NCBI GenBank assembly: GCA_951406725.2
Contig: OX597833.1
Span: 49,662,001 to 49,726,000, forward strand
Reading direction: 5' to 3'
Length of the DNA: 64,000 nucleotides
From: Octopus vulgaris
Taxonomy: Eukaryota
Positions 3,510-61,033 of this stretch are shown one piece after another. The first letter of the stretch is position 1. Each line of letters opens with the position of its first letter. Below the pieces are notes generated by a model. That model was given only the letters and a program-made list of their open reading frames with translations. It was not told the DNA's origin and did not search any database. Position numbers and translations under genes: made by a program.

Positions 3510-3655
3510 TTATTTCTTTATTGCCCACAGGGGGCTAAACATAGAGGGGACAAACAAGGACAGACAAAGGGATTAAGTCGATTACATCGACCCCAGTGCG
3601 TAACTGGCACTTATTTAATCGACCCCGAAAGGATGAAAGGCAAAGTCAACCGCGG
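3510..3655 (-). mobile_element. SINE group B, 3' portion
   Basis: Reverse complement of the SINE B body and tail (atttctttattgcccaca...gaccccgaaaggatgaaaggcaaagtc). Confidence 0.85.
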
Positions 3656-6386: not shown

Positions 6387-6592
6387 TGAATGTGCTTGTG
6401 TGTATGTTTCATCATTGCAAGTGTGTAAATTAAACATGAAATATAGCGATATTTTGACCAGAAATTAAAAACAAACGCCTAGAAAACTTGTATTCAAACT
6501 TAGGGTACCGGCGAGTGAAGCTTTCAACGGCTACAATACAGAGACGTATATGCACACTCATACGTACACACAGTATACATATTCAGACATAA

Positions 6593-6973
6593 GGCGGCGA
6601 GCTGGCAAAAACGTTAGCACGCTGGCCGAAATGCGTAGCCGAATTTCGTCTGCCGTTACGTTCTCAGTTCAAATTCCGCCGAGGTCCACTTTGCCTTTCA
6701 TCCATTCGGTGTCGATAAATTAAGTACCAGTTACGCCCTGAGGTCGATGCAATCGACTTAATCCGTTTGTCTGTCCTTGTTTGTTCTCTCTTTGTTTAAC
6801 CCATTGTGGGTAGTAAAGAAATAAGTATTTCGTCTGCTGTTACGTTCTGAGTTCAAATTCCGCCGAGGTTGACTTTGCCTTTCATCCTTTCGGGGTCGAT
6901 AAATTGAGTACCATTTATGAACTGCCCTTGTTTGTCCCCTCTATGTTTAGCCCATTGTGGGCAATAAAGAAAT
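6593..6973 (+). mobile_element. SINE group B, dimeric
   Basis: ggcggcgagctggcaaaaacgttagc head, gttcaaattcc B-box, second unit restarting at gtatttcgtctg, tail aataaagaaat. Confidence 0.9.
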
Positions 6974-7011
6974 AATACGTATTCACACATGCACACACAC
7001 ACAAACACGCA

Positions 7012-13828: not shown

Positions 13829-14042
13829 TTGTCCGATAGTTGAAACAGTGGCCCTAATTTCTTTTCAAATGATTAGGGGTTTGTTTCTGATGATCTCAAC
13901 GGCCCGCTGTTTTTCCTGTTATCCTTTGACTGTTGACGATAGCTTTCACGATATTCTGAAGATGGTGGTTTTTTATTCGACCGTTCACATTGCTGTCGAT
14001 AATGGATGCTGTTCTTAGCAGTATTTTAATCGCCTTGTATCA
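13829..14042 (+). repeat. 214-bp direct duplication, copy 1 (copy 2 at 15495-15708)
   Basis: ttgtccgatagttgaaacagtggcc...atcgccttgtatca appears identical in both places by eye. Confidence 0.95.
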
Positions 14043-14608
14043 TTGACAAAATTCCCACACAAAGGAGAAACATGTCCGCCGTTCCTGTAAATCACTGCTG
14101 CGTGATTACACGGAATATAAGTGACAGCAGAGCAACTATTTCTTTTTAAGAAAACTGGTAAGACAAGATAGAAAATGGACAGTGATAAAGCCTATGTCAA
14201 GCAATTTTCTCCGGAAAACAAATAGAGCAGATATAAATTTGTATCGGCAATCCTCCGGGATAACAGTTGGAAATTAATCGGGGCCTACTGCCCAACAGTA
14301 ATTATATTTATTACTACAATGATGTCCAGTTTACTGAGAGTTATTTTAGGAATTATATATCTTCATTGACACCACGTGAGTGGTCCTCGGCCTTTCCATT
14401 TCCAAGGTCCACTTTTAATTTTGATAAATTTCTTACACATCTCATACTAAGAAAATGCTTGTTTATTCAAAAAGCTGATTTTATTAAGTAACAACAAACT
14501 CGTTTCCCCAGTTTCGTTTCTAATTCGAAAGATACATGTAACTAAACAAATATATTTAACTAACTGATGCTCTATAACTTTTTCCCGGCCGATGCACTAT
14601 AACTTTAA

Positions 14609-15022
14609 GGCGGCGAACTGGCAGAAACGTTAGCACGCCGGGCGAAATGCGTAGCCGTATTTCGTCTGCCGTTACGTTCTGGGTTCAAATTCCGCCGAGG
14701 TCGACTTTGCCTTTCATCCTTTCGGGGTTGATTAAAAAAGTACCAGTTACGCACTGGGGTCGATATAATCGACTTTATCCGTTTGTCTGTCCTTGTTTGT
14801 CCCCTCTGTGTTTAGCCCCTTGTGGGTAATAAAGAAATAGGTATTTCATCTGCCGCTACGTTCTGAGTTCAAATTCAGCCGAGGTCGACTTTGCCTTTCA
14901 TCCTTTCGAGGTCGATAAATTAAGTACCAGTTGTGTAGTGGGGTCGATGTAATCGACTTAATCCGTTTGTCTGTCCTTGTTTGTCCTCTCTGTGTTTAGC
15001 ACCTTGTGGGCAAAAGAGAAAT
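14609..15022 (+). mobile_element. SINE group B, dimeric
   Basis: Head plus two tandem body/tail units. Confidence 0.92.
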
Positions 15023-15040
15023 ATATTTATGCATTTTACG

Positions 15041-15290
15041 GTGGAGGCGCATGGCTTAGTGGTTAGGGTGTCAGCATCATGATCGTAAGATTGTGGTTTC
15101 GATTCCTGACCGGCAGAGCGTTGTGTTCTTGAGCAAAACGCTTCATTTCACGTTGCTCCAGTTCACTCAGCTGGCAAAAATGAGTAACGCTGCATGGACT
15201 GGCGCCCCGTCCAGCCGGGGAACACATACGCCATAGAAACCAGGAAACCGAGCCCATGATCCTGGCTAGGCTTTAAAAGGGCGCATTTAT
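15041..15290 (+). mobile_element. SINE group C (tRNA head, CORE-like domain)
   Basis: tggcttagtggttag A-box, ggtttcgattcc B-box, tgtgttcttgagcaaaac CORE-like segment; imperfect ~14-bp TSD tttat(g/a)cattttac. Confidence 0.88.
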
Positions 15291-15494
15291 TATTTTTTAT
15301 TTATACATTTTACACTGCAGTCTTAAAAATTTGGACTACAGTTCATGGGGCTTCTAGAGATCAGCAAAATCCAAGATAAGAACTGCTCATCAATTTCGCT
15401 TTCAATGGGACCAATGAAGAGGGAACAGTAATATTGTTTCTTCAGAATCGCCACAATTTCTTTAGTATCATCATGAAAAGTTTTCATTAATCAG

Positions 15495-15708
15495 TTGTCC
15501 GATAGTTGAAACAGTGGCCCTAATTTCTTTTCAAATGATTAGGGGTTTGTTTCTGATGATCTCAACGGCCCGCTGTTTTTCCTGTTATCCTTTGACTGTT
15601 GACGATAGCTTTCACGATATTCTGAAGATGGTGGTTTTTTATTCGACCGTTCACATTGCTGTCGATAATGGATGCTGTTCTTAGCAGTATTTTAATCGCC
15701 TTGTATCA
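15495..15708 (+). repeat. 214-bp direct duplication, copy 2
   Basis: Identical to 13829-14042. Confidence 0.95.
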
Positions 15709-15748
15709 ATGTTTATATGTAAACATGTATACATGCTTACATTGACGT

Positions 15749-16125: not shown

Positions 16126-16595
16126 GTCTGTATATGTATAAAATAAGTCCTTTGATTTTCATAATGAGCCATTTTCTCTCTTGGAATCCTCCTATTTATA
16201 TATTCATGACTTATGTTCGTGTGTTGTTTGAGCATATATTGGTAACATCGTCCACAAACATCTGTCAAGTTCGCTTTGATATCAAAAGAAGTCTGTGAGT
16301 GAAAAACACATATAAATATCTAATAACCATAAATTGCACCCATAAACTAAGCACAGCAGCACAGCTAAGATGGTATGGATTGTCGACATTTCATCTGTTT
16401 GGCCCTCATCCTCTCCGCTCAGTCGTCCGTGTTTCATTTAATAGAATATAGTTTGTTTGTATACTACACATATTATCGACCTGCGATGGCTAAATGGCAA
16501 AGGCGATACGTTAAGGAGAATTTGAACTCATAATATAAAGAAGGAAAACTAAATACTGTAAAATAAGAACAACAAGATAAAAAATTCAGCCCGAC

Positions 16596-16752
16596 AGGAG
16601 TGGCTGTGTGGTAAGTAGCTTGCTAACCAACCACTTGGTTCCGGTTTCAGTCCCACTGCGTGGCATCTTGGGCAAGTGTCTTCTGTTATAGCCTCGGGCC
16701 GACCAATGCCTTGTGAGCGGATTTGGTAGACGGAAACTGAAAGAAGCCTGTC

Positions 16753-16794
<42 letters not shown>

Positions 16795-17010
16795 GTGTGT
16801 GTGTTTGTCCCCCTAGCATTGCTTGACAACCGATGCTGGTGTGTTTACGTCCCCGTCACTTAGCGGTTCGGCAAAAGAGGCCGATAGAATAAGTACTGGG
16901 CTTACAAAGAATAAGTCCCGGGGTCGATTTGCTCGACTAAAGGCAGTGCTCCAGCATGGCTGCAGTCAAATGACTGAAAGAAATAAAAGAGAAAAAGAGA
17001 GAGAAAGAGA
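16596..17010 (+). mobile_element. SINE group A, near full length
   Basis: aggagtggctgtgtggtaag...ggtttcagtccc...tggcatcttgggcaagtgtc (CORE-like)...cagcatggctgcagtcaaatgactgaaa. Confidence 0.92.
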
Positions 17011-17019
17011 GAATACATA

Positions 17020-17077
<58 letters not shown>

Positions 17078-17794
17078 GAATGGCACCGCGAGTGTCGCGT
17101 TGCTCTCAAGCAACTCTGCCGTCCTGGGTCGACCTTCAGTGACTTCAACACAACGAAAGCATTCTATAGGGGATTAGAGGAGGGGAGGTACGACGACGAG
17201 CTCGGGGCGAACCTGGACGTCGACGAGGAGTACCTGACCCGCCTGTTCAGGACGACTTTCGGGCCAGGGCCCATGGACAACTTCCAAAGATCCCTGGCCT
17301 GGCAGTGTTACCGAGAAGCGCTACCCGTTCGGGATAAGCTCTACAGACATGGCTCGAGAAACACGGGGCCGACCTGCCCGAGATGCGGTCAGAGCGACGA
17401 AACCGTTCTGCACGCACTCGTGCAGTGTCCAACAATTTCCGACCTGTGGGCTTGTGTCGAACAACTGCTGTCACGTGTGGGACGAGTCGGTTTATCAGCT
17501 GAGTCTATCGTCAATATTGTCACGCCTCCTTCCTTCAAACGGGAAGGAAGAGCAATTTTCATCATCCTTGTGGCTATGGCGAAAGAATGTATCTGGTGGA
17601 CGCGTCTGAAAGGATTGGAGACAAACACTTTCCTCTCTGGTCAATCTCTCATCAACTTCTTCAAGTACCACTTGAAAAGGAAAGTGAGAGTAGAGAGGCA
17701 AGTTTTGTCTAGCGAATGTTTTAAAAAAAGATGGGTGAATGTAGCAAGGATGGCACGTATGAATGACGAAGCCACCTTGAGCATAATCCTATGA
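17078..17794 (+). pseudogene. L1/Tx1-clade LINE ORF2 C-terminus (zf-RVT zinc knuckle), 5'-truncated but uninterrupted
   Basis: W-x5-LP...CPRC-x4-ET-x2-H-x4-C-x6-W motif followed by IWWTR; about 238 open codons; the upstream part of the ORF-track ORF is SINE and microsatellite read-through. Confidence 0.9.
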
Positions 17795-18282
17795 ACCCAG
17801 AAATTGAAAACAGAGGGTTACCCACTTGCAAACAAATGTGGTAACATATAACAATATTGACCAAGGTTACCGTGGTCTTTTTCGTAGGCTTTTCTTCCCA
17901 CGGATAAACCTTACTTGCTTTCCCCTTTACACCGTATATCATAACACTGTGATACACGATCCCTATTGATCGTTCTTTTTTTTTTTTTTCCTCTTCGCCT
18001 TTTTTCCCCCTTTTTCTTCTTTTTTCATTTCTCTTTTCTTTTGTTCCTCTTCCCTTTCTTTTTTTTTATTTTTTATTTTATTTTTTTTTAAATTTTTATT
18101 CTTTTTATTTTTTATTCTATTTATTTTTTTCATTTTTTACTTTTTTTTGTTCTTTTCTTCCCTTTTACAAGCCCTCTTGATCGAAAACCTACGCCACCCC
18201 CTTTTTTTCATCCCCTAAAAGAAAAGCTCTACCTTGTAACTTGTCCCATCTGTGTGCAGCCCTGTGTGGCCAATAAAGAAAC
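17078..18282 (+). mobile_element. 5'-truncated L1/Tx1-like non-LTR retrotransposon inserted in (TATC)n
   Basis: ORF2 end, T-rich 3' UTR, terminal aataaagaaac, (ATCT)n on both sides, no poly(A). Confidence 0.88.
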
Positions 18283-18292
18283 TTATCTATCA

Positions 18293-18379
<87 letters not shown>

Positions 18380-18388
18380 CATCTATCC

Positions 18389-18469
<81 letters not shown>

Positions 18470-19729
18470 ACTGTAAAATAAGAACAAGGTAAAAAATTCA
18501 GCCCGACATAATATCGGTTCTGCCAGCATACTGTATGAAAATATGCTAAATTTTGCCAGACAGAAAGATATCTACTAGTCATAAACACACTCAAAGCCTG
18601 GCAGACAGGCGGTTCACTTACTCATATTTCATGAAATCCAAGCGAACTTATCTGATAATAATGAAACAAAAGAACTACCTCAGAAAACAAGGCAACGAAA
18701 GAATGCCGCTGGAGATTTTACTGCACAACCAAAATATTTAACTAACTACTCATCAATCCTCTCCTTCCTTTTATTTTGATTCAGTATCCCTTCACGAGAA
18801 TATTCTGCCTTGTTACTCCATCATAACACCACAATTAATTCTCGCTCCTAACATTCACCTCTTCCATGTCCAGAAATGATGATTTTTATTTTTCTTATTC
18901 CTATTGAAACCGTTTTGGTCTATTACTGCTGTTGATTCAGAGTAGCTGTTATTAATGTTGTTTTAGTGTTGTGATAATTGCTGCTGCTGCCGCTGCTGCT
19001 GTTGTTGTTGTTGTTAAGCAATAAGACGGGTAAGGGTGATTAGGTAATGGTCTAGGGCTTAGGGGCGGGAGACCCCAGACCTTGGAAAGAAAAAAAAAAA
19101 CTTTGGTCGTCTTGTTGTAGTCGAGAGTTCTTCGTTGAGGCCCGACACCACTGGAGGTGGCCCTTGAAGTCGCTGGAAATGGAGATCTCCGGGTTCAAAT
19201 TCTTGAACGGCTGCTGCTGCTGCTCTTGTTATCACTGTTGATGCTGCTATTGCTGCTGTCTTCTTCTTCTTCTTCTTCTTCTTCTTCTTCTTCTTCTTCT
19301 TCTTCTTCTTCTTCTTCTTCTTCTTCTTCTTCTTCTTCTTTATCTTCTTCTTCTTCTTCTTTATCTTCTTCTTCTTCTTCTAATCAGGACTCACATAATT
19401 AACCACAAATAATAATCTCTAATTCGAGCCTACTCTAAGCTACTAAGAATGCGTGTGGCAACTTGAAGATCCACCCACCACACACGATAGATTGGCGGTT
19501 GCACGGGCGCGAAAGCTACGTTATTATCCTCATTCAGTAAACGGTAGCTTTAAACGGGTGGAGAGCTGAACCATCCTGGGGTACATAGGATTCGCAATCT
19601 AGACTAGGGTCTGTAAGTTTACCACACCATAGTGGGTTATACCATGGTTCCTCTGCTTTACGGCAGAAGTAGGAAGAAAAAGTGAGAGAAAGTTGTGGTG
19701 AAAGAGTACAGCGGAGTGTGTATGTATGT

Positions 19730-22019: not shown

Positions 22020-22230
22020 TATTTCTTTACTTGCCCAGAAGGGGCTAAACATAGAGAGAATAAACAAGGACAGACGAAGGGATTGAGTCAATTATATCGA
22101 TCCCAGTGCGAAACTGGTACTTTATTTATCGACCCCGAAAGGATGAAAGGCAAAGTTGACCTCTGCGGAATTTGAACTCAGAACGTAACGACAGACGAAA
22201 TACCGCTGAGCATTTCGTGTCTGCCAGCTT
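22020..22230 (-). mobile_element. SINE group B
   Basis: Reverse-complement match. Confidence 0.85.
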
Positions 22231-27670: not shown

Positions 27671-28275
27671 GAATGTGGGTTGGTAATAATGAAGACGATT
27701 CTAAGAGATTGGTTTTTATCAGGAGCATCAGAAATACAGAAACATTCAAGCAAGCAAAAACTCATAACATAAATAGCAAAAAGGTTAGACACATACGCAT
27801 GCGCACTCGAACATATACACGCATTCACGTGCGTGCGCACCATATACGTACAAATTTACTTATACGCACACAAAAACACAAGCACGCATATATACACGCA
27901 TGCATATATCGGTTGCATTCGCGGTTAATCCGGCCAGGTTGGAACGCTATTTTGTAGGGATCCTATCTAGCAGAAATTTTGGGAGGGTTCTTAGCTGATA
28001 CCTTATTTTGTCAATCCGGAAGGGATGAAAATCAAAGCTTATCTCGGCGAGACTTGGCTGACTTCGGCGTGATCTCGGGGTGATTGTGTTTATCTCAACG
28101 TGATTTGGTTGACCGCGATGGACTTTGGTTGACCTCAACGAGATTTAGTTAACCACGAAGGGTGAAAGGGGTGCGAACTCAGACGCTTACAGATGCGGCA
28201 CAAAAACAACAAACCATTTTCTCTGACTCTCTACGGATTCTACCAATCCACCGCACTCTCATCAAAAGATTACAT

Positions 28276-28506
28276 ATTTCTTTACTACCCACAAGGGGCT
28301 AAACACAGAGGGGACAAACAAGGACAGACAAACGGATTAAGTCGATTACATCGACCCCAGTGCGTAACTAGTACTTAATTTATCGACCCCGAAAGGATGA
28401 AAGGCAAAGTTGACCTCGGCGGAATTTGAACGCAGAACGTAACGGTAGACGAAATACGGCTACGCATTCCGCCCGGCGTGCTAACGTTTCTGCCAGCTCG
28501 CCGCCT
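28276..28506 (-). mobile_element. SINE group B, full-length monomer
   Basis: Reverse-complement head to tail. Confidence 0.92.
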
Positions 28507-29080
28507 TAACAACAACAGCAACGACAACAACAACAACGACGACGATGAGGAGGAGGAGGAGGAGGAGGAGGGAGGGAGAGGAGTAGCAGGAGGGTGAAAG
28601 TAAAGAGGAGGAAGGGGAGATGAGGAGGGTGGAGTGATGATGATGATGACGGTGTGAGTTTTTAGCTAAAAATAATTTTAAAAATTTATCAAATATTTGT
28701 TTTTAGAAATTTCAAGGTTACAGAACTGAGAATTAACTAATGAAACAGAGCAGCATGAAGAAGCGGGTGGTGGGAATTGATGCAAGAACAGAGAAGATGT
28801 AGGAGGACGGTGGTGTTGAAGGGAGAGAATCTGGTTGTTGATATAGGGGTCGCTGGGGTTTCCGAAGGTATGGCGAACGTAATGAGATAATGAAATATTT
28901 TAAAAGGAAATGAGATTGAAAAATAGAAGCGATACCGAGAAAATTACCTGCAAACAAAAATCTGCATGCGTCCTCACATGCAAACACACACAAACACATA
29001 CAAACTCAATCGCACGCACTAACACAGACATGCTATATCCCTTTTTCAGTGTGTTCGTATGTGTATGCGTATGTATGTGC

Positions 29081-33489: not shown

Positions 33490-33891
33490 ATTTATACTTT
33501 ATTTCATCGAAGCCAGTAATTTCGAATATTCAACTGGTGTTTGTTTCTTCGATCCTAAAAAGGAAAAGTCGACCTCGGTGGAATTCGAACTTAGAACGTA
33601 AAGACACAAAATGCCGCAGAGCATTTCGCCCAGCGTGCTAACGATTCTGGCCATCTCGCTGCCTTTTTAATCGTATAATATTCTTAGACCTCTGTCTTTA
33701 CGTTCCGGGTTCAAATTCCGCCGAGGTCGACTTTGTCTTTCATAAACTAAGTAACAGCTGCGTACTGGTGTTGATCTAATCGACTGGCCCCTTCTCCCAA
33801 AATTTCTGGCCTTGTGCCTATACAAGAAAGGATTATTACTATTGTTGTAGTAGTAGTGGTTGTGGTGGTGGTGGTGGTGGTAGTAGTAGTG

Positions 33892-35735: not shown

Positions 35736-36020
35736 TTTGTTTAATTTGCAAAGCGTTGTGTTAGTTAATGATGGTCTTTGAAACTACTTCGTAAATCTGA
35801 TATTATCCGCGGAAAGACATTTCCCGTTGAGATTGTTACAGGAAACATAATCCACTTGGGTGTTAACAATATTGAAGAGTTTCATCTCCTGTGGGTTTGC
35901 TAGAATCGGTTTCATTGAAATCGTGTTAGTATACCAAATCCACATGAATGCATGGGTGAGGTTTTCTTTTCCATAGCATTAATGATAGCAACGTTATGTT
36001 TTAATGATATATTCTGCTAA

Positions 36021-36435
36021 GGCGGCTAACTGGCAGAAACGTTAGCACGCCAGGCGAAATGCGTAGCCGTATTTCGTCTGCCGTTACGTTCTGAGTCCAA
36101 ATTCCGCCGAGGTCGATTTTGCCTTTCATCCTTTCGGGGTCGATAAATTAAGTACCAGTTACGCACTGGGGTCGATGTAATCGACTTAATCCCTTTGTCT
36201 GTCCTTGTTTGTCCCCTCTATATTTAGCCCCTTGTGGGTAATAAAGAAACAGGTATTTCGTCTGCCGCTACGATCTGAGTTCAAATTCTGCCGAAGTCGA
36301 CTTTGCCTTTCATCCTTTCGGGGTCGATTAAGTAAGTACCAGTCACACACTGGGATCGATATAATCGACTTAATCCGTTTGTCTGTCATTGTTTGTCCTC
36401 TCTGTGTTTAGCCCATTGTGGGTAGAAAAGAAATA
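36021..36435 (+). mobile_element. SINE group B, dimeric, followed by an older B-variant to ~36620
   Basis: Head plus two units. Confidence 0.92.
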
Positions 36436-36667
36436 AGAATCGTTAGCAGGACAGGAAAAGTGCTTAGCGATATTGCGTTGATCTTCACGTTCTCAAGTTC
36501 AAATCTCGCCTGAGTTGATTTTACTTTTCATCTTTCGGGATTGACAAAATCAGTTCCAGTTGATCACTGGGGGTCGATGTAATCGACTTACATCTTAACC
36601 CGAAAATTATGATATAAGCATTCTGGAGAGATAAAAAAAACAGAGAAAGCATATGCTTTCCTGTAAC

Positions 36668-36704
<37 letters not shown>

Positions 36705-36792
36705 GAGAGAGGAAGAGAGAGGAAGAGAGAAAGAGAAAAGGCGAGGAGAAGAGAGAGTTATGTGATGCAAAGGAAAACATAAAAATAAAAAA

Positions 36793-37044
36793 ATAAATGC
36801 GTACTTTTAAAGCCTAGCCAGGCTCATGGGCCTGGTTCCCGATTTATATAGCGTCTGTGTTCCCCAACTGGACGGGACGCCAGTCCATCGCAGCATTACT
36901 CATTTTTGCCAGCTGAGTAGACTGGAGCAATGTGAAATGAAGTGTTTTGCGCAAGAACGCAAAACGTTGCCCGGTCCAGGGATCGAAACTACAATCTTAC
37001 GATTATGATGCTGACGCCCTAACCACTAAACCACGCGCCTCCAC
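36793..37044 (-). mobile_element. SINE group C
   Basis: Reverse-complement match; flanked by aaaggaaaa(c/t)ataaa duplication. Confidence 0.88.
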
Positions 37045-40835: not shown

Positions 40836-41381
40836 CATATATATATTAGCATAATATATACATATATATTAGCATACTTTTAAATGACAACTACATACAA
40901 ATATATACACATACATATGTGTATATACACATACACATAAACACACAATAGCTCCAACGACAATTGTGAACACCACTACCAGCATCATCATCATTAACCA
41001 CTCCCACCATCAATACTACCTTCACAATCACCTCCCACTACCACCATCACCACCATCATTATTACCTGCACCATAATTACAACAATTACTACCACAGAGT
41101 ACATCATCAGGTGTAGCCGCAAATCCAATAAATCAAGGAACGATATCAAAAACGGCCCCAATGCGTTGTCGCTTGTCCTTCCTGAAATAGCAGTGGATTT
41201 TGCCTCCAATTACATTTCACCGTGTTATTGGATAATATAGTTGTAATTATATGATTCATATTTACACCATGCCTATCTAAACAAATCTATCACTACTCGA
41301 CCTCGAGTTGCCTCTTAGTGTCATGGGCACAAATATCTTGAATTTACAAATAAAAGCATAAATGATATTCTCTGCATTTAA

Positions 41382-41946
41382 GGTGGTAAGCTGGCAGAAA
41401 CGTTAGCACGCCGGGCAAAATGCTCAGCGGTATTTCGTCTGCCGCTACGTTCTGAGTTCAAATTCAGCCGAGGTCGATTTTGCTTTTCTTCCTTTCGAGG
41501 TCGATTAAATATGTACCAGTTACGCACTGGAGTCGATATAATCGGCTTAATCCGTTTGTCTGTCCTTATTTGTCCTCTCTGTGTTTAGCCCCTTGTGGGT
41601 AGTAAAGAAATAGGTATGCCGCTACGTTCTGAGTTCAAATTCCGCCGAGGTCGACTTTGCCTTTCTTCCTTTCGAGGTCGATGAAATATGTACCAGTTAC
41701 GCACTAAGGGTCGATATAATCGACTTAATCCGTTTGTCTGTCCTTGTTTGTCCTCTGTGTTTAGCCCCTTGTGGGTAATAAAGAAATAGGTATGCCGCTA
41801 CGTTCTGAGTTCAAATTCCGCCTAGGTCGACTTTGCCTTTCATCCTTTCGAGGTTGATTAAGTAAGTGCCAGTTACGCACTGGGGTCGATGTAATCGACT
41901 TAATCCCTTTGTCTGTCTCTCTTTGTCTCCTCTATATTTAGCCCTA
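41382..41946 (+). mobile_element. SINE group B, trimeric
   Basis: One head, three tandem body/tail units joined at aaagaaataggtatgccgctacgttctgag. Confidence 0.92.
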
Positions 41947-42364: not shown

Positions 42365-42616
42365 GTGGAGGCGCGTGGCTTAGTGGTTAGGGTGTCAGCT
42401 CCTTGATCGTAAGATTGTGGTTTCGATTCCTTGACCGTTGTGTTCTTGAGCAAAACACTTCATTTCACGTTGCTCCAGTCCACTCAGCTGGCAAAAATGA
42501 GTAACGCTGCGATGGACTGGCGTCCCGTCCAGATGGGAAATACATACGCCATTGAAACCGGGGAAACTGGGCTCAAGAGCCTGGCTAGACTTTAAAAGGG
42601 CGCACTTATTTATTTT
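42365..42616 (+). mobile_element. SINE group C with 12-bp TSD
   Basis: aatgtgaaaatc at 42353-42364 and 42617-42628. Confidence 0.92.
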
Positions 42617-46602: not shown

Positions 46603-46657
46603 TGATGCGTCTCCACACGGTTTCATTCACAAGATGTTGACCTTCCTGGGATTATAT

Positions 46658-46885
46658 ATCTCTTTACTGCCCACAAGGGGCTAAACATAGAGGAGACAAA
46701 CAAGGACAGGCAAGGGGATTAAGTCGATTATATCGACGCCAGTGCGTAACTGGTACTTAATTTATCGACACCGAAAGGATGAAAGGCAAAGCCGACCTAG
46801 GCGGAATTTGAACTCAGAACGTAACGGCAGACGAAATACGGCTACGCATTTCGCCCGGCGTGCTAACGTTTCTGCCAGCTCGCCG
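46658..46885 (-). mobile_element. SINE group B nested in a minus-strand SINE A (about 46465-46992)
   Basis: Full B monomer; imperfect flanking duplication cttcctgggattata / cttccggggactata. Confidence 0.88.
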
Positions 46886-47213
46886 TCTTCTTCCGGGGAC
46901 TATAGTAGAAGACACTTGCCCAAGATGCCTTGCAGTGGGACTGATCCCGAAACCAATATGGTTACAAAGCGAGTTTCTTAACCACACAGTCACATCGAAG
47001 TGAAAAGAAAATGAACCAGGTGAGAAATAACTCACAGTGGCCATTGTTAGTATTTATAAGACCAGAACAAATAAGGATATATTAAATAATATACAAAATA
47101 AACGCTTCATTTCTGGAAAATATACCCTACCTCCAGGGTAGAACAATCGGTTTGCATCACTTGGTAACCACTGGGCCATTGCGCCTCTCACACACACGCA
47201 CACGCATATATAC

Positions 47214-51780: not shown

Positions 51781-52180
51781 TCTTTTACTCTTTTACTTGT
51801 TTCAGTCATTTGACTGCGGCCATGCTGGAGCACCGCATTTTTAGTCGAGCAAATCGACCCCGGGACTTATTCTTTGTAAGCCCAGTACTTATTCTATTGC
51901 CAAACCTCTAAGTGACGGGGACGTAAACACACCAGCATCAGTTGTCAAGCGATGCTAGGGGGACAAACACAGACACACAAACACACACACACACACACAT
52001 TTATATATACGTATATACGACAGGCTTCTTTCAGTTTCCGTCTACCAAATCCACTCACAAGGCATTGGTCGGCCCGGGGCTATAGCAGAAGACACTTGCC
52101 CAAGATGCCACGCAGTGGGACTGAACCCGGAACCATGTGGTTGGTTAGCAAGCTACTTACCACACAGCCACTCCTACGCC
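51781..52180 (-). mobile_element. SINE group A (young), head-to-head with the next copy
   Basis: Reverse complement of 52211-52639. Confidence 0.93.
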
Positions 52181-52210: not shown

Positions 52211-52375
52211 GGCGCAGGAGTGGCTGTGTGGTAAGTAGCTTGCTAACCATCCACATGGTTGCGGGTTCAGTCCCACTGCGTGGCATCTTGGGCAAGTGTC
52301 TTCTGCTATAGCCCCGGGCCGACCAATGCCTTGTGAGTGGATTTGGTAGATGGAAACTGAAAGAAGCCTGTTGTA

Positions 52376-52426
<51 letters not shown>

Positions 52427-52639
52427 ATGTTTATGTGTCTGTGTTTGTCCCCCTAGCATTGCTTGACAACCGATGCTGGTGTGTTTACGTCCCCGTCACT
52501 TTGCGGTTCGGCAAAAGAGACCGATAGAATAAGTACTGGGCTTACAAAGAATAAGTCCCGGGGTCGATTTGCTCGACTAAAGGCGGTGCTCCAGCATGGC
52601 CGCAGTCAAATGACTGAAACAAGTAAAAGAGTAAAAGAG
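52211..52639 (+). mobile_element. SINE group A (young), full length
   Basis: ggcgcaggagtggctgtgtggtaag to (gtaaaaga)2 tail. Confidence 0.93.
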
Positions 52640-55265: not shown

Positions 55266-55830
55266 ATACACACATACACACTCATACACACATATGTATG
55301 TATATATGCTTACATAAATTAAGATATGGCACAGCAGAATGACAAAAGGAACCTGGGGGAAACAAACAAGAAAAGACTAACATGCAATGGGCTTGGACAA
55401 GCATATCCACCATGTGTTATATATGCATGTGTATGTATATACGTGTGTGTATGTTTGCGTGTGTGGAAGTTACAAGTGTGTACGCGCGCGAGCGTGTGCA
55501 TGTGTATATGTGTGAGTGTGTGTGTGTGTGTTTGTTCACACCAGCTTATGACAGCCGGTGCTGTTTTGTTTGTCTTCGGTCAAATCGCTGGGCAGAATAA
55601 GTAGCAGGCTGAAAAGAATCCAAAGTAATGAGTCGATTTGGTCGACTAAAAACCCTTCTAGGCAGTACTCCAGCATGGCCGCACACCAGTAACTGAACCA
55701 AGTAAAAGATAAATAAGAAAAACATAAAAGATCCATTAATGGGTAAAATAACTGGACTTTTTCCTCGTCTATGGGTGAAAACACAGAGATGAAAATCAGA
55801 GTCTTACAAAGGACGAATAAGAAGAGACCT

Positions 55831-56056
55831 ATTTGTTTACTACCCACAAGGGGCTAAACACAGAGGGAGCAAACAACAGACAAATGGATTAGGTCGATTA
55901 CATCGACACCAGTGCGTAACTGGTACTTATTTAATCGACCCCGAAAGGATGAAAGGCAAAGTCGACCTCAGCGGAATTTGAACTCAGAACGTAGCGACAG
56001 ATGAAATACCGCTAAGCATATCACCCGGCGTGCTTACGCTTCTGCCAGCTCGTCGT
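55831..56056 (-). mobile_element. SINE group B monomer with 17-bp TSD
   Basis: cgaataagaagagacct at 55814-55830 and 56057-56073. Confidence 0.93.
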
Positions 56057-56681
56057 CGAATAAGAAGAGACCTCCCTACCTTCTCTGTGTAACACAGGAA
56101 TGAATCATAATGCATGAAAGCATAATAGCATTGACAGGAAAGAGGCTTAAGCCTCGATCTTAATCTTGTTTTATGCGAGAAATTTTAGCCACCATATTTA
56201 CCGCAAACGACCGGTTTGTGGTTGTAGATCGAACCATTGCGTGCAAGTTAATCTCTTTGCTGTGAAAATAGAGATTGTCTGAATCATAAAGAGCATGAGG
56301 TTGATTTGAACTGAAAGGAAAAGGAATCTAGACTATAAAATTTCTCAAGAACTGTCTCGCCTTTATGGCGAGGAAATGAAATAATCTTCGTAACTTTATT
56401 TAATTTAACCTTTCACCTCTTTCCTGATTTCTATACCTAAACTCATTTAAACTGTTAATAACGCAATTTTGAACTGAATATATTTTTGATAGAGACATAA
56501 TTTTCCATTAAATAGATTTTCAGTAACTGCTCAGAAAGAAAAGAAAAACTGAAAAATCGACACACGTTTACGACATATTAGAATGGAAGACTTTAAATGG
56601 ATAAAAAGTTGATTAATGTTGTTATTGTTTGTTGTCCAATATATATGTTTATATATATATATATATATATACATATATACA

Positions 56682-60018: not shown

Positions 60019-60631
60019 TATACAATTAATTAATATTGTTTTCTCTTTACTGCATAGATGTTTTGCAAACAACTTACACATGCAAGTGCTACCAGCCAAA
60101 AGCTCCGTATACCGGAAGCCAGCAAGTTTATGGGGTCATCAGGAGAGAATGCGCGCTGTTTCGGGGCCTACCTCTCGACGGCATCAATGCGCACCGCCCC
60201 CCTCACTGATATGAGGCCCCGCTTGCTAGATCAGCTGGTTATGAAGTTAAACTCAATATCCTTCTAGCCATCGCTCATCGTCTTTTTTTAACCAAATCCA
60301 GTGGCTAGCCTTCTCCACTGTAGATTGGATATCAGTCATGGTGGTATAGACTTTACGATGAGTTAGGCCTAGCGATAATAACAGTCGTCTCACACTGTGT
60401 CCAACGAACCCTCTACATCCGACAGATAAATATTGTAGTATATTCAGTTCTTATGGAGACATTTACTTTACATTGGATAACCAACTGATACAGTTCTCCG
60501 GTGAACAATGTACGTCACTTCCATCATGTATATTGATCAATTCCTCTTGTATGAGAAGTTACCTACAATATACCCATGTCCTGTCCATATAGAATATTCT
60601 CTATCTTAATATTATAGGTAACGGAAGCTAC

Positions 60632-61033
60632 CTCTATGCTGATGACCTTGTTCTAATTGCTGAGTCACTATCAGAACTAGAGGAGAAGTTTCAAGTGTGG
60701 AAACAAGGATTAGAATCGAAGAGCCTTAGAGTCAACCTAGCTAAAACCAAAGTCCTAATAAGTAGGAAGGCAGGCAAACCACAAATCCCTTCAGGTAGAT
60801 GGCCCTGCTCGATCTGTAGTAGAGGCGTATGTAGAAACTCTATAAGATGTACCCAGTGTAAGCTATGGACACATAAGAGGTGCAGTAATATCAAAGGAAG
60901 GCTAACTGGGAAGATAGTTTTTGTATGTGGCAGATGCTCGGGAGCAATAAACTCTGAAAATGCGCAGAGAACAACTTCTGCCACATTCCAGGGAGGAAAA
61001 CTAGAAGTAGTTGATAGCTTCCGATACCTATAG
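60632..61033 (+). pseudogene. RTE-clade LINE reverse transcriptase fragment with internal PHD finger
   Basis: LYADDLVLIAES...WKQGLESKSLRVNLAKTKVL [CSIC..CTQC..HKRC..CGRC] LEVVDSFRYL, one open frame. Confidence 0.92.

Follow-up and report, generated by a model that had tools for sequence, protein, structure and literature searches.

The window, by which we mean the whole 64-kb stretch of Octopus vulgaris DNA analysed here, is rich in microsatellites and SINEs and carries the 3′ part of a LINE on its forward strand. This copy is 5′-truncated and retains the C-terminal 238 codons of ORF2 (17078–17794, + strand), which encode a zf-RVT domain with a CxxC...HxxxxC finger and contain no stop before the TGA at 17792–17794. 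The ORF is followed by a T-rich 3′ UTR of 487 bases (17795–18281, +) that ends without poly(A), a run of 8 or more A being absent after the LINE end. The last segment of the UTR (18232–18281, +) is a tail common to the LINE and to a SINE family, SINE B. The repeat (TATC)n abuts the truncated ORF on the 5′ side (17020–17077, +) and resumes 3′ of the LINE (18282–18469, +); in total it makes up 1.5% of the 64-kb window. A SINE A copy lies upstream (16596–17010, +) and the LINE sits in its tail microsatellite. SINE A, microsatellite and LINE are together enclosed by a direct repeat of 38/41 bases (left copy 16555–16595, right copy 18470–18507, both +), which is likely the SINE A target site duplication (TSD). 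The simplest reading of this arrangement is that the LINE entered the tail microsatellite of a SINE A copy already in place. The SINE A TSDs found were 19 and ∼40 bases long, and the repeat around this block is long for a TSD when set beside the 19 bases of another SINE A copy; SINE A, microsatellite and LINE may also represent one chimeric insertion of the whole block. Elsewhere in the window, two SINE A copies are placed head to head ∼40 bases apart (51781–52175, −; 52215–52639, +).

SINE B is ∼235 bases long and was found as 14 units at nine loci in the 64 kb. A full unit at 14605–14839 (+), with an A-box-like motif at SINE positions 15–25, the B-box-like sequence GTTCAAATTCC and the tail at 14791–14839, is followed by a headless second unit starting from about SINE position 53 (14841–15023, +). 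Comparable arrays of a full and a headless unit were found at 6590–6974 (+), where a 16-base TSD (14/16) surrounds the entire array, and at 36018–36435 (+), and a full unit with two headless units, the last of them cut at its 3′ end, at 41378–41944 (+). Single full copies lie at 28275–28509 (−) and, inside a SINE A-like head and with a 15-base TSD (13/15), at 46657–46889 (−). A further single copy at 55829–56061 (−) has an exact 17-base TSD (56057–56073 and 55814–55830), and the remaining two copies either have an internal deletion in the head (22020–22217, −) or are 5′-truncated (3511–3655, −).

The A-box-like motif was present at positions 15–25 in all seven full SINE B copies. The B-box pattern was found in none of the seven, and GTTCAAATTCC, which is one base longer than the pattern, is visible in the alignment. 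ARAGORN and Rfam detected no tRNA in the SINE heads. The SINE B body may be a Meta/MESC domain; neither of two motifs sought was present in the MetaSINE supplementary data searched. A SINE C family with its own tail was also observed (15040–15296, 42365–42616 and 36787–37044), the 15040 copy having an apparent TSD of ∼15 bases by eye. An exact 217-base direct repeat (13829–14045 and 15495–15711, 1666 bases apart) lies around the SINE B array and the SINE C copy and may have arisen by recent duplication, be an LTR-like pair or stem from an assembly error.

The LINE and SINE B terminate at the identical base. As the earlier note had reported, LINE positions 18241–18281 and SINE B positions 14797–14837 share 34 of 41 bases without gaps. 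With one 3-base gap the match reaches the CCTTGT border at 18232 in the LINE and 14791 in the SINE, giving 80% identity over 50 bases. Across the 11 of 13 SINE B tails that entered the 41-base comparison (those at 41786 and 22022 were left out for indels), 29–34 bases were identical to the LINE tail, and six of the 41 LINE bases differed from all 11 SINE copies. Local alignment of the last 122 bases of the LINE with three SINE B copies gave scores of 48, 43 and 34, and for each of the three copies none of 1000 dinucleotide shuffles attained the observed score (null maximum 28–32). Scores against the LINE tail were at chance level for six control SINEs (two SINE A, two SINE C and two sister SINEs, described below), as was the score of the first part of the LINE UTR against SINE B. 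Within the window the tail motif had 12 matches (11 in SINE B and one in the LINE) with 0 expected, and no non-L1 LINE in the 64 kb matched the SINE tail better; such a better match is what the earlier note had named as refuting its proposal. A degenerate form of the motif found no stretch among the metagenome and genome contigs scanned, and the scan for related loci with alignment A1 confirmed none of 121 metagenome, 27 genome and 40 viral pattern hits. The segment is short and was picked from many repeat pairs of the window, but a chance likeness of two T/G-rich ends has a negligible probability, being contradicted by the shuffle test for all three SINE copies, by the control SINEs and by the exactly co-terminal position. 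The motif AATAAA, which the earlier note had seen in both tails, is intact in only 5 of the 13 SINE tails, most of the others having AGTAAA, and was dropped as a required signal.

We examined in public contigs whether the tail is the LINE family's own end. The stretch was contained in 20 runs of nine studies, 18 of which had at least half of its words; two insect-metagenome rows with a share of 0.04 were left out. LINE positions 18160–18292 (the last 133 bases) were aligned at 85% likeness to the contigs of four runs from four studies with three organism labels, of which X1 is possibly the source of the window and X11 was guessed to be RNA, yielding 5389, 1817, 1421 and 678 aligned contigs. 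Among the 32 pieces listed, at least eight spanned base 18232, with a minimum of 31 aligned bases to either side (three in X1, two in X6, three in X8 and none in X11), and each of them differed from the window copy at 7–12 places and therefore came from another copy. Summed contig depth, which was not taken as copy number, was 57–71% directly 5′ of the shared part relative to the depth within it, with no step at 18232 or 18241. At 18180–18184 it was 12–17% of the tail depth, corresponding to an approximately six- to eightfold rise from 18180 to 18260, and this low upstream depth could be due to varying T tracts, to truncation or to further elements that bear the tail. The upstream loose ends listed were T-rich or were variants of the same UTR, and the SINE B body was absent from the 24 loose-end rows listed. 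Downstream, 103, 53, 44 and 26 contigs in the four runs continued into (TATC)n, counts to be read with two cautions: the 11 flank bases of the aligned stretch favour contigs flanked by TATC, and on the 3′ side a terminal repeat would have the same appearance. In X1, the match broke off into mixed sequence at 18281 in 19 contigs and at 18288 in 12. Places variable at 5% or more numbered 0 in the last 25 tail bases versus 7 in the first 25 (four runs; Fisher p 0.01), a contrast to which trimming close to the alignment ends could add, and the low variability of the last 25 bases is as expected for a constrained end. Subfamily variants at 18245 and 18247 reached 17–58%.

From the bridging pieces, the depth and the loose ends we conclude, at the level of sequence, that the tail is the end of a multi-copy LINE family with several subfamilies and no SINE B fragment; since the last 133 bases alone were aligned, the link between ORF2 and the tail comes from one copy. 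An adjacent SINE fragment, which the earlier note had set beforehand as the refutation of its pairing, was thus excluded by the LINE-type sequence found upstream of the tail in a multi-copy family, and the six fixed differences from SINE B rule it out as well. The joining of ORF2 and tail in one copy and the rise in depth between 18180 and 18260 would also fit positions 18160–18281 being the terminus of an independent non-autonomous element inserted 3′ of an ORF2 fragment. We regard this as very unlikely, given that the T-rich UTR is unbroken between the TGA and the tail and shows neither a TSD nor a head, that (TATC)n flanks the whole piece on both sides and that the listed upstream loose ends were T-rich or UTR variants free of SINE body. 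Were the element a derivative with ORF1 only, its tail would still belong to this lineage.

We next placed the LINE by its protein. The ORF2 finger (CPRC...HALVQC) scored 34.9 bits for zf-RVT against a cut-off of 27.5. Among the named relatives of the LINE protein, one from Argonauta hians was 58% identical and one from Octopus bimaculoides 83% identical over a short piece; relative P0003 was 64% identical over the LINE fragment, with RVT_1 and zf-RVT domains, and P0008 was 34% identical, with Exo_endo_phos, RVT_1 and zf-RVT. Full-length relatives comprise endonuclease, RT and zf-RVT, of which the truncated window copy is without endonuclease and RT. The RT of P0003 matched human L1 ORF2p at 172–174 bits and R2 at 63–88 bits, among 10 hits in all that included no RTE or CR1 proteins. 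The fish and amphioxus elements P0255, P0275 and P0216 matched P0003 at 294–326 bits, compared with 174 for human L1. These three elements have an ORF1 of the RRM type and/or with CCHC; the window LINE copy carries no ORF1. An ORF1 with RRM and CCHC knuckle instead of Transposase_22 is consistent with Tx1 in non-mammalian animals (PMC5203782). On the P0003 scores, the domains of the relatives and the scores of the ORF1-bearing elements, membership of the LINE in the L1 group is well supported, in agreement with the earlier note, to which the zf-RVT finger and the greater nearness of P0003 to human L1 than to R2 lend weight. Assignment to the Tx1 clade is likely on the same grounds; the homologs compared carry no Tx1 name, and the protein searches and the cluster look-up returned no Tx1-named protein among the listed homologs.

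Several other protein-level observations were made. The Octopus bimaculoides Rho GEF 10-like model (P0006) starts with ∼45 residues of the LINE ORF2 at 83% identity, a stretch that may be a gene-model artefact or an exonised piece. The relatives P0001–P0004, from short contigs of which some are bacterially labelled, were 63–69% identical to the LINE ORF2, compared with 58% for the Argonauta protein, and are probably host DNA in metagenomes. At 60593–61030 lies a fragment of another LINE type, in which a PHD-like finger comes after the last part of an RT domain; it had no match to the L1-group proteins used.

SINE B ends in ...AAAGAAAT(A), and no run of 8 or more A followed any of its 13 ends. 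With no poly(A) at either the SINE or the LINE ends, poly(A) recognition therefore cannot apply to these copies. TSDs of 15–17 bases were found at three of the nine SINE B loci (17/17, 14/16 and 13/15), the bounds at the remaining loci being truncated or nested or yielding weak candidates only; the 17-bp TSD that the earlier note had assigned to the copy at 55831 was exact. TSDs of this length do not tell L1-group from RTE machinery.

Two sister SINEs follow SINE B through its head and body as far as about position 170, beyond which their tails are unrelated. One of them (36436–36620, +) has a different tail and is the element at whose head the SINE B array at 36018 sits; the other (33680–33860, +) has the same body and a tail ending in (ATT)-type repeats. 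Since the sister SINEs diverge at about position 170, the tail is therefore a swapped module. In one case, the headless unit at 6825–6974, ∼34 body bases are missing and the sequence rejoins exactly at CCTTGT, the border shared with the LINE.

In the four arrays, five of the 13 SINE B tails are joined directly to a headless unit, which always begins at one fixed base (about position 53), with no extra head upstream of the headless units. The second units of the four arrays differ from one another, which speaks against a single dimeric master and in favour of several events at the fixed site. A single dimeric master was also rejected in view of units 1 and 2 at 41378, which share private changes, and local duplication may have produced arrays. 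The fixed insertion base in the four arrays resembles the tandem SINEU-3 insertions attributed to Tx1-Mar (PMC4494074).

The earlier note had described a small hairpin in both tails and proposed stringent recognition. The outer stems can form alike in the two tails, whereas the inner ones are shifted by one base against each other, and the energies were no better than those of shuffles, with −5.2 kcal/mol (z +0.79) for the LINE tail and −6.8 kcal/mol (z −1.43) for the SINE B tail at 14791. Four SINE copies gave −4.9 to −8.6 kcal/mol (z −0.03 to −1.54). Overall, seven of eight folds had z between +0.79 and −1.54, and the eighth (z −3.78) was a different fold in one SINE copy. The consensus fold, computed from few sequences, had 11 pairs, two of which the LINE breaks. 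Two common SINE polymorphisms in the stems keep their pairs by wobble (G-C/G-U and U-A/U-G). The sole two-sided change in the fold occurred in a single copy; the inner stem had none, and 288 of 500 shuffles reached its covariation score. A tail hairpin is possible according to these predictions, which lend no support to a role for it in stringent recognition, folding being weak and without two-sided covariation. The SINE and the LINE appear to behave like a stringent pair, with a predicted need of the tail for mobilisation; because the hairpin is weak and lacks covariation, 'stringent' is a label that we infer.

The explanation that we favour, and consider fairly probable, is that SINE B took its tail from a Tx1-like LINE by template switch and that a sister family of the window LINE copies the SINE, its ORF2p being predicted to bind the tail RNA. 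Movement of the tail in the direction from LINE to SINE is likely. After such a capture, the Pol III transcript of the SINE would present the tail, ORF2p of the sister family would bind the tail RNA, and the endonuclease would nick the target, with reverse transcription beginning at ...AAAGAAAT(A) by target-primed reverse transcription, a process established for LINEs. The sister families would keep the tail and differ in target, the window family inserting mostly into (TATC)n and the SINE carrier partly into the SINE's own head and partly into unrelated DNA.

The proposal that SINE B is mobilised by 'this Tx1-like family or a relative' was hence narrowed: a relative is favoured and this family itself disfavoured, because of the six fixed tail differences and the unlike insertion sites. 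Among contigs at least 85% alike, two of the six SINE states were found, at 1–8% and 2–15% of depth, and the other four were absent. None of the 13 SINE B ends was followed by (TATC)n. The six fixed differences and this absence of (TATC)n suggest that the window LINE family is probably a cousin of the SINE B carrier; no sister LINE with a tail closer to SINE B was present in the data analysed.

If the (TATC)n-associated window family were itself the carrier, its target choice would have to be loose with a passenger RNA. Apart from the SINE B copies, the window contains no tail match but that of this family; different flanks occur next to some of its members (the 19 X1 contigs leaving at 18281 into mixed sequence), and looseness has a parallel in SINEU-1 and SINEU-2, which follow the target of their carrier in only 23% and 13% of insertions (PMC4494074). 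We still judge it unlikely that the window family mobilises SINE B, considering the six tail positions (of 41) at which it departs from every one of the 11 SINE copies, the low depths given above for the two SINE states seen in contigs, and the SINE ends themselves, 0 of 13 of which lie in (TATC)n and 5 of 13 of which abut a single base of the SINE head.

It is similarly improbable, in our estimate, that the tail is common by descent and is no recognition signal, either as a relic or as a piece that the LINE captured from a SINE-like element, with SINE B copied by another LINE clade or a relaxed enzyme. Consistent with this reading are the weak fold without covariation, the recent activity also of RTE, CR1 and Dong-R4 in Octopus vulgaris (PMC13282606 Table 1) and the crocodilian Tx1-Mar, which is thought to carry SINEU without any common tail (PMC4494074). 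Against it, both elements stop at the identical base without poly(A), the end of the LINE tail is its least variable part, and the sister SINEs show the SINE, not the LINE, as the known tail swapper.

Tail pairs of the L1 clade have been described in plants and algae. ZmSINE2, ZmSINE3 and SINE2_SBi pair with LINE1-1_ZM, a monocot 1a L1 of maize and sorghum, and SINEX-3_CR of Chlamydomonas pairs with L1-1_CR (PMC3472496, PMC3747384). The statement in the earlier note that shared tails belong mostly to CR1, L2 and RTE LINEs must be qualified with respect to novelty for L1, these plant and algal pairs having already been published (PMC3472496). Like them, the octopus pair consists of a putatively tRNA-type SINE that has ∼45–50 terminal bases in common with an L1-clade LINE whose end is conserved, and stringent recognition was proposed there as well. 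The published pairs differ in having green-plant hosts and plant or algal L1 lineages, whereas here the host is an animal and the LINE is Tx1-like; L1-1_CR and its SINE end in poly(A), whereas the octopus LINE and SINE B do not; and their hairpins, at −10.8 to −17.7 kcal/mol (mfold) with compensatory changes, contrast with the weak octopus hairpin. Table 1 of PMC3747384 contains no animal L1 or Tx1 pair and no mollusc.

Crocodilian SINEU and Tx1-Mar (PMC4494074) resemble the octopus elements in a SINE carried, here probably, by Tx1 machinery, with a common target and tandem insertions at one site. SINEU, however, has snRNA heads, a poly(A) tail and a Mariner target (PMC4494074), whereas SINE B is linked to its LINE by the common tail and has a fixed site in its own head; Kojima 2015 tied SINEU to Tx1-Mar by target and states that the SINEU-1 3′ end is found in no LINE (PMC4494074). 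Tx1 families that target microsatellites include Kibi at (TC)n, Koshi at (TTC)n and crocodilian Tx1 at (TTCC)n/(TTTC)n (PMC4494074). The window LINE is similar to these as an L1-group LINE with microsatellite on both sides, most relatives being then followed by the same repeat. It differs in its repeat, (TATC)n, and in a clade placement that is indirect, and the sections consulted mention no partner SINE of the Kibi, Koshi or crocodilian families.

The co-terminal tail without poly(A) and the exchange of tails on a conserved body are shared with UnaSINE-UnaL2 and ZfL2 (PMC4176376) and with the MetaSINEs (PMC4824008). The UnaL2 and ZfL2 pairs belong to other LINE clades and their stem-loops are required by assay (PMC4176376), whereas the octopus fold is predicted only. 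Tail binding was demonstrated for L2 (PMC4176376), and 'TX1' in that paper is the name of a mutant and not of a clade. The partner LINEs of MetaSINEs were unknown in PMC4824008. Mollusc SINE papers give CR1 and L2 partners or none (PMC4758252, PMC4824008, PMC5804259), the passages considered from Kojima 2018 and Petrosino 2022 make no mention of Tx1 (PMC5786205, PMC9115989), the LINE-derived regions of SINEBase, as far as its description goes, are Bov-B, CR1 and L2 only (PMC3531059), and octopus repeat surveys report, in the portions covered, L1-Tx1 and SINE families without partners (PMC13282606, PMC8967140; general background in PMC4640811 and PMC5753468). No published SINE-Tx1 or animal L1-group tail pair turned up in the journal literature searched, although Repbase, earlier papers or supplements may contain one.

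In sum, the sharing of a tail between an abundant SINE and an L1-group, probably Tx1, LINE lineage in an animal is real, L1-clade tail pairs being known before in plants and algae. Alu and processed pseudogenes are accounted for by mammalian L1, which copies RNA of any kind that has poly(A), and an animal Tx1-like pair without poly(A) would be an independent branch of tail recognition. A wider reading, which we put forward as tentative and somewhat doubtful, is that a major octopus SINE owes its mobility to a Tx1 lineage that lacks poly(A) and reads the tail, and whose sister families keep the 3′ RNA module and switch targets, between (TATC)n and the SINE's own head; the passenger SINE would then seed landing sites for its carrier and for itself. 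If this wider reading is true, no stringent SINE-LINE pair of the L1 group would have come before it in animals, and tail recognition would date back to the ancestor of L1 and Tx1. SINE B units (11 of 14) diverge by 0.067 from their majority sequence, a value close to that of the SINE and LINE burst at 0.065 in Octopus vulgaris (PMC13282606), a fit that is suggestive only. SINEs make up 11.6% of the Octopus vulgaris genome, mostly without a class (PMC13282606), and the pair would name the carrier for a large share of octopus SINEs.
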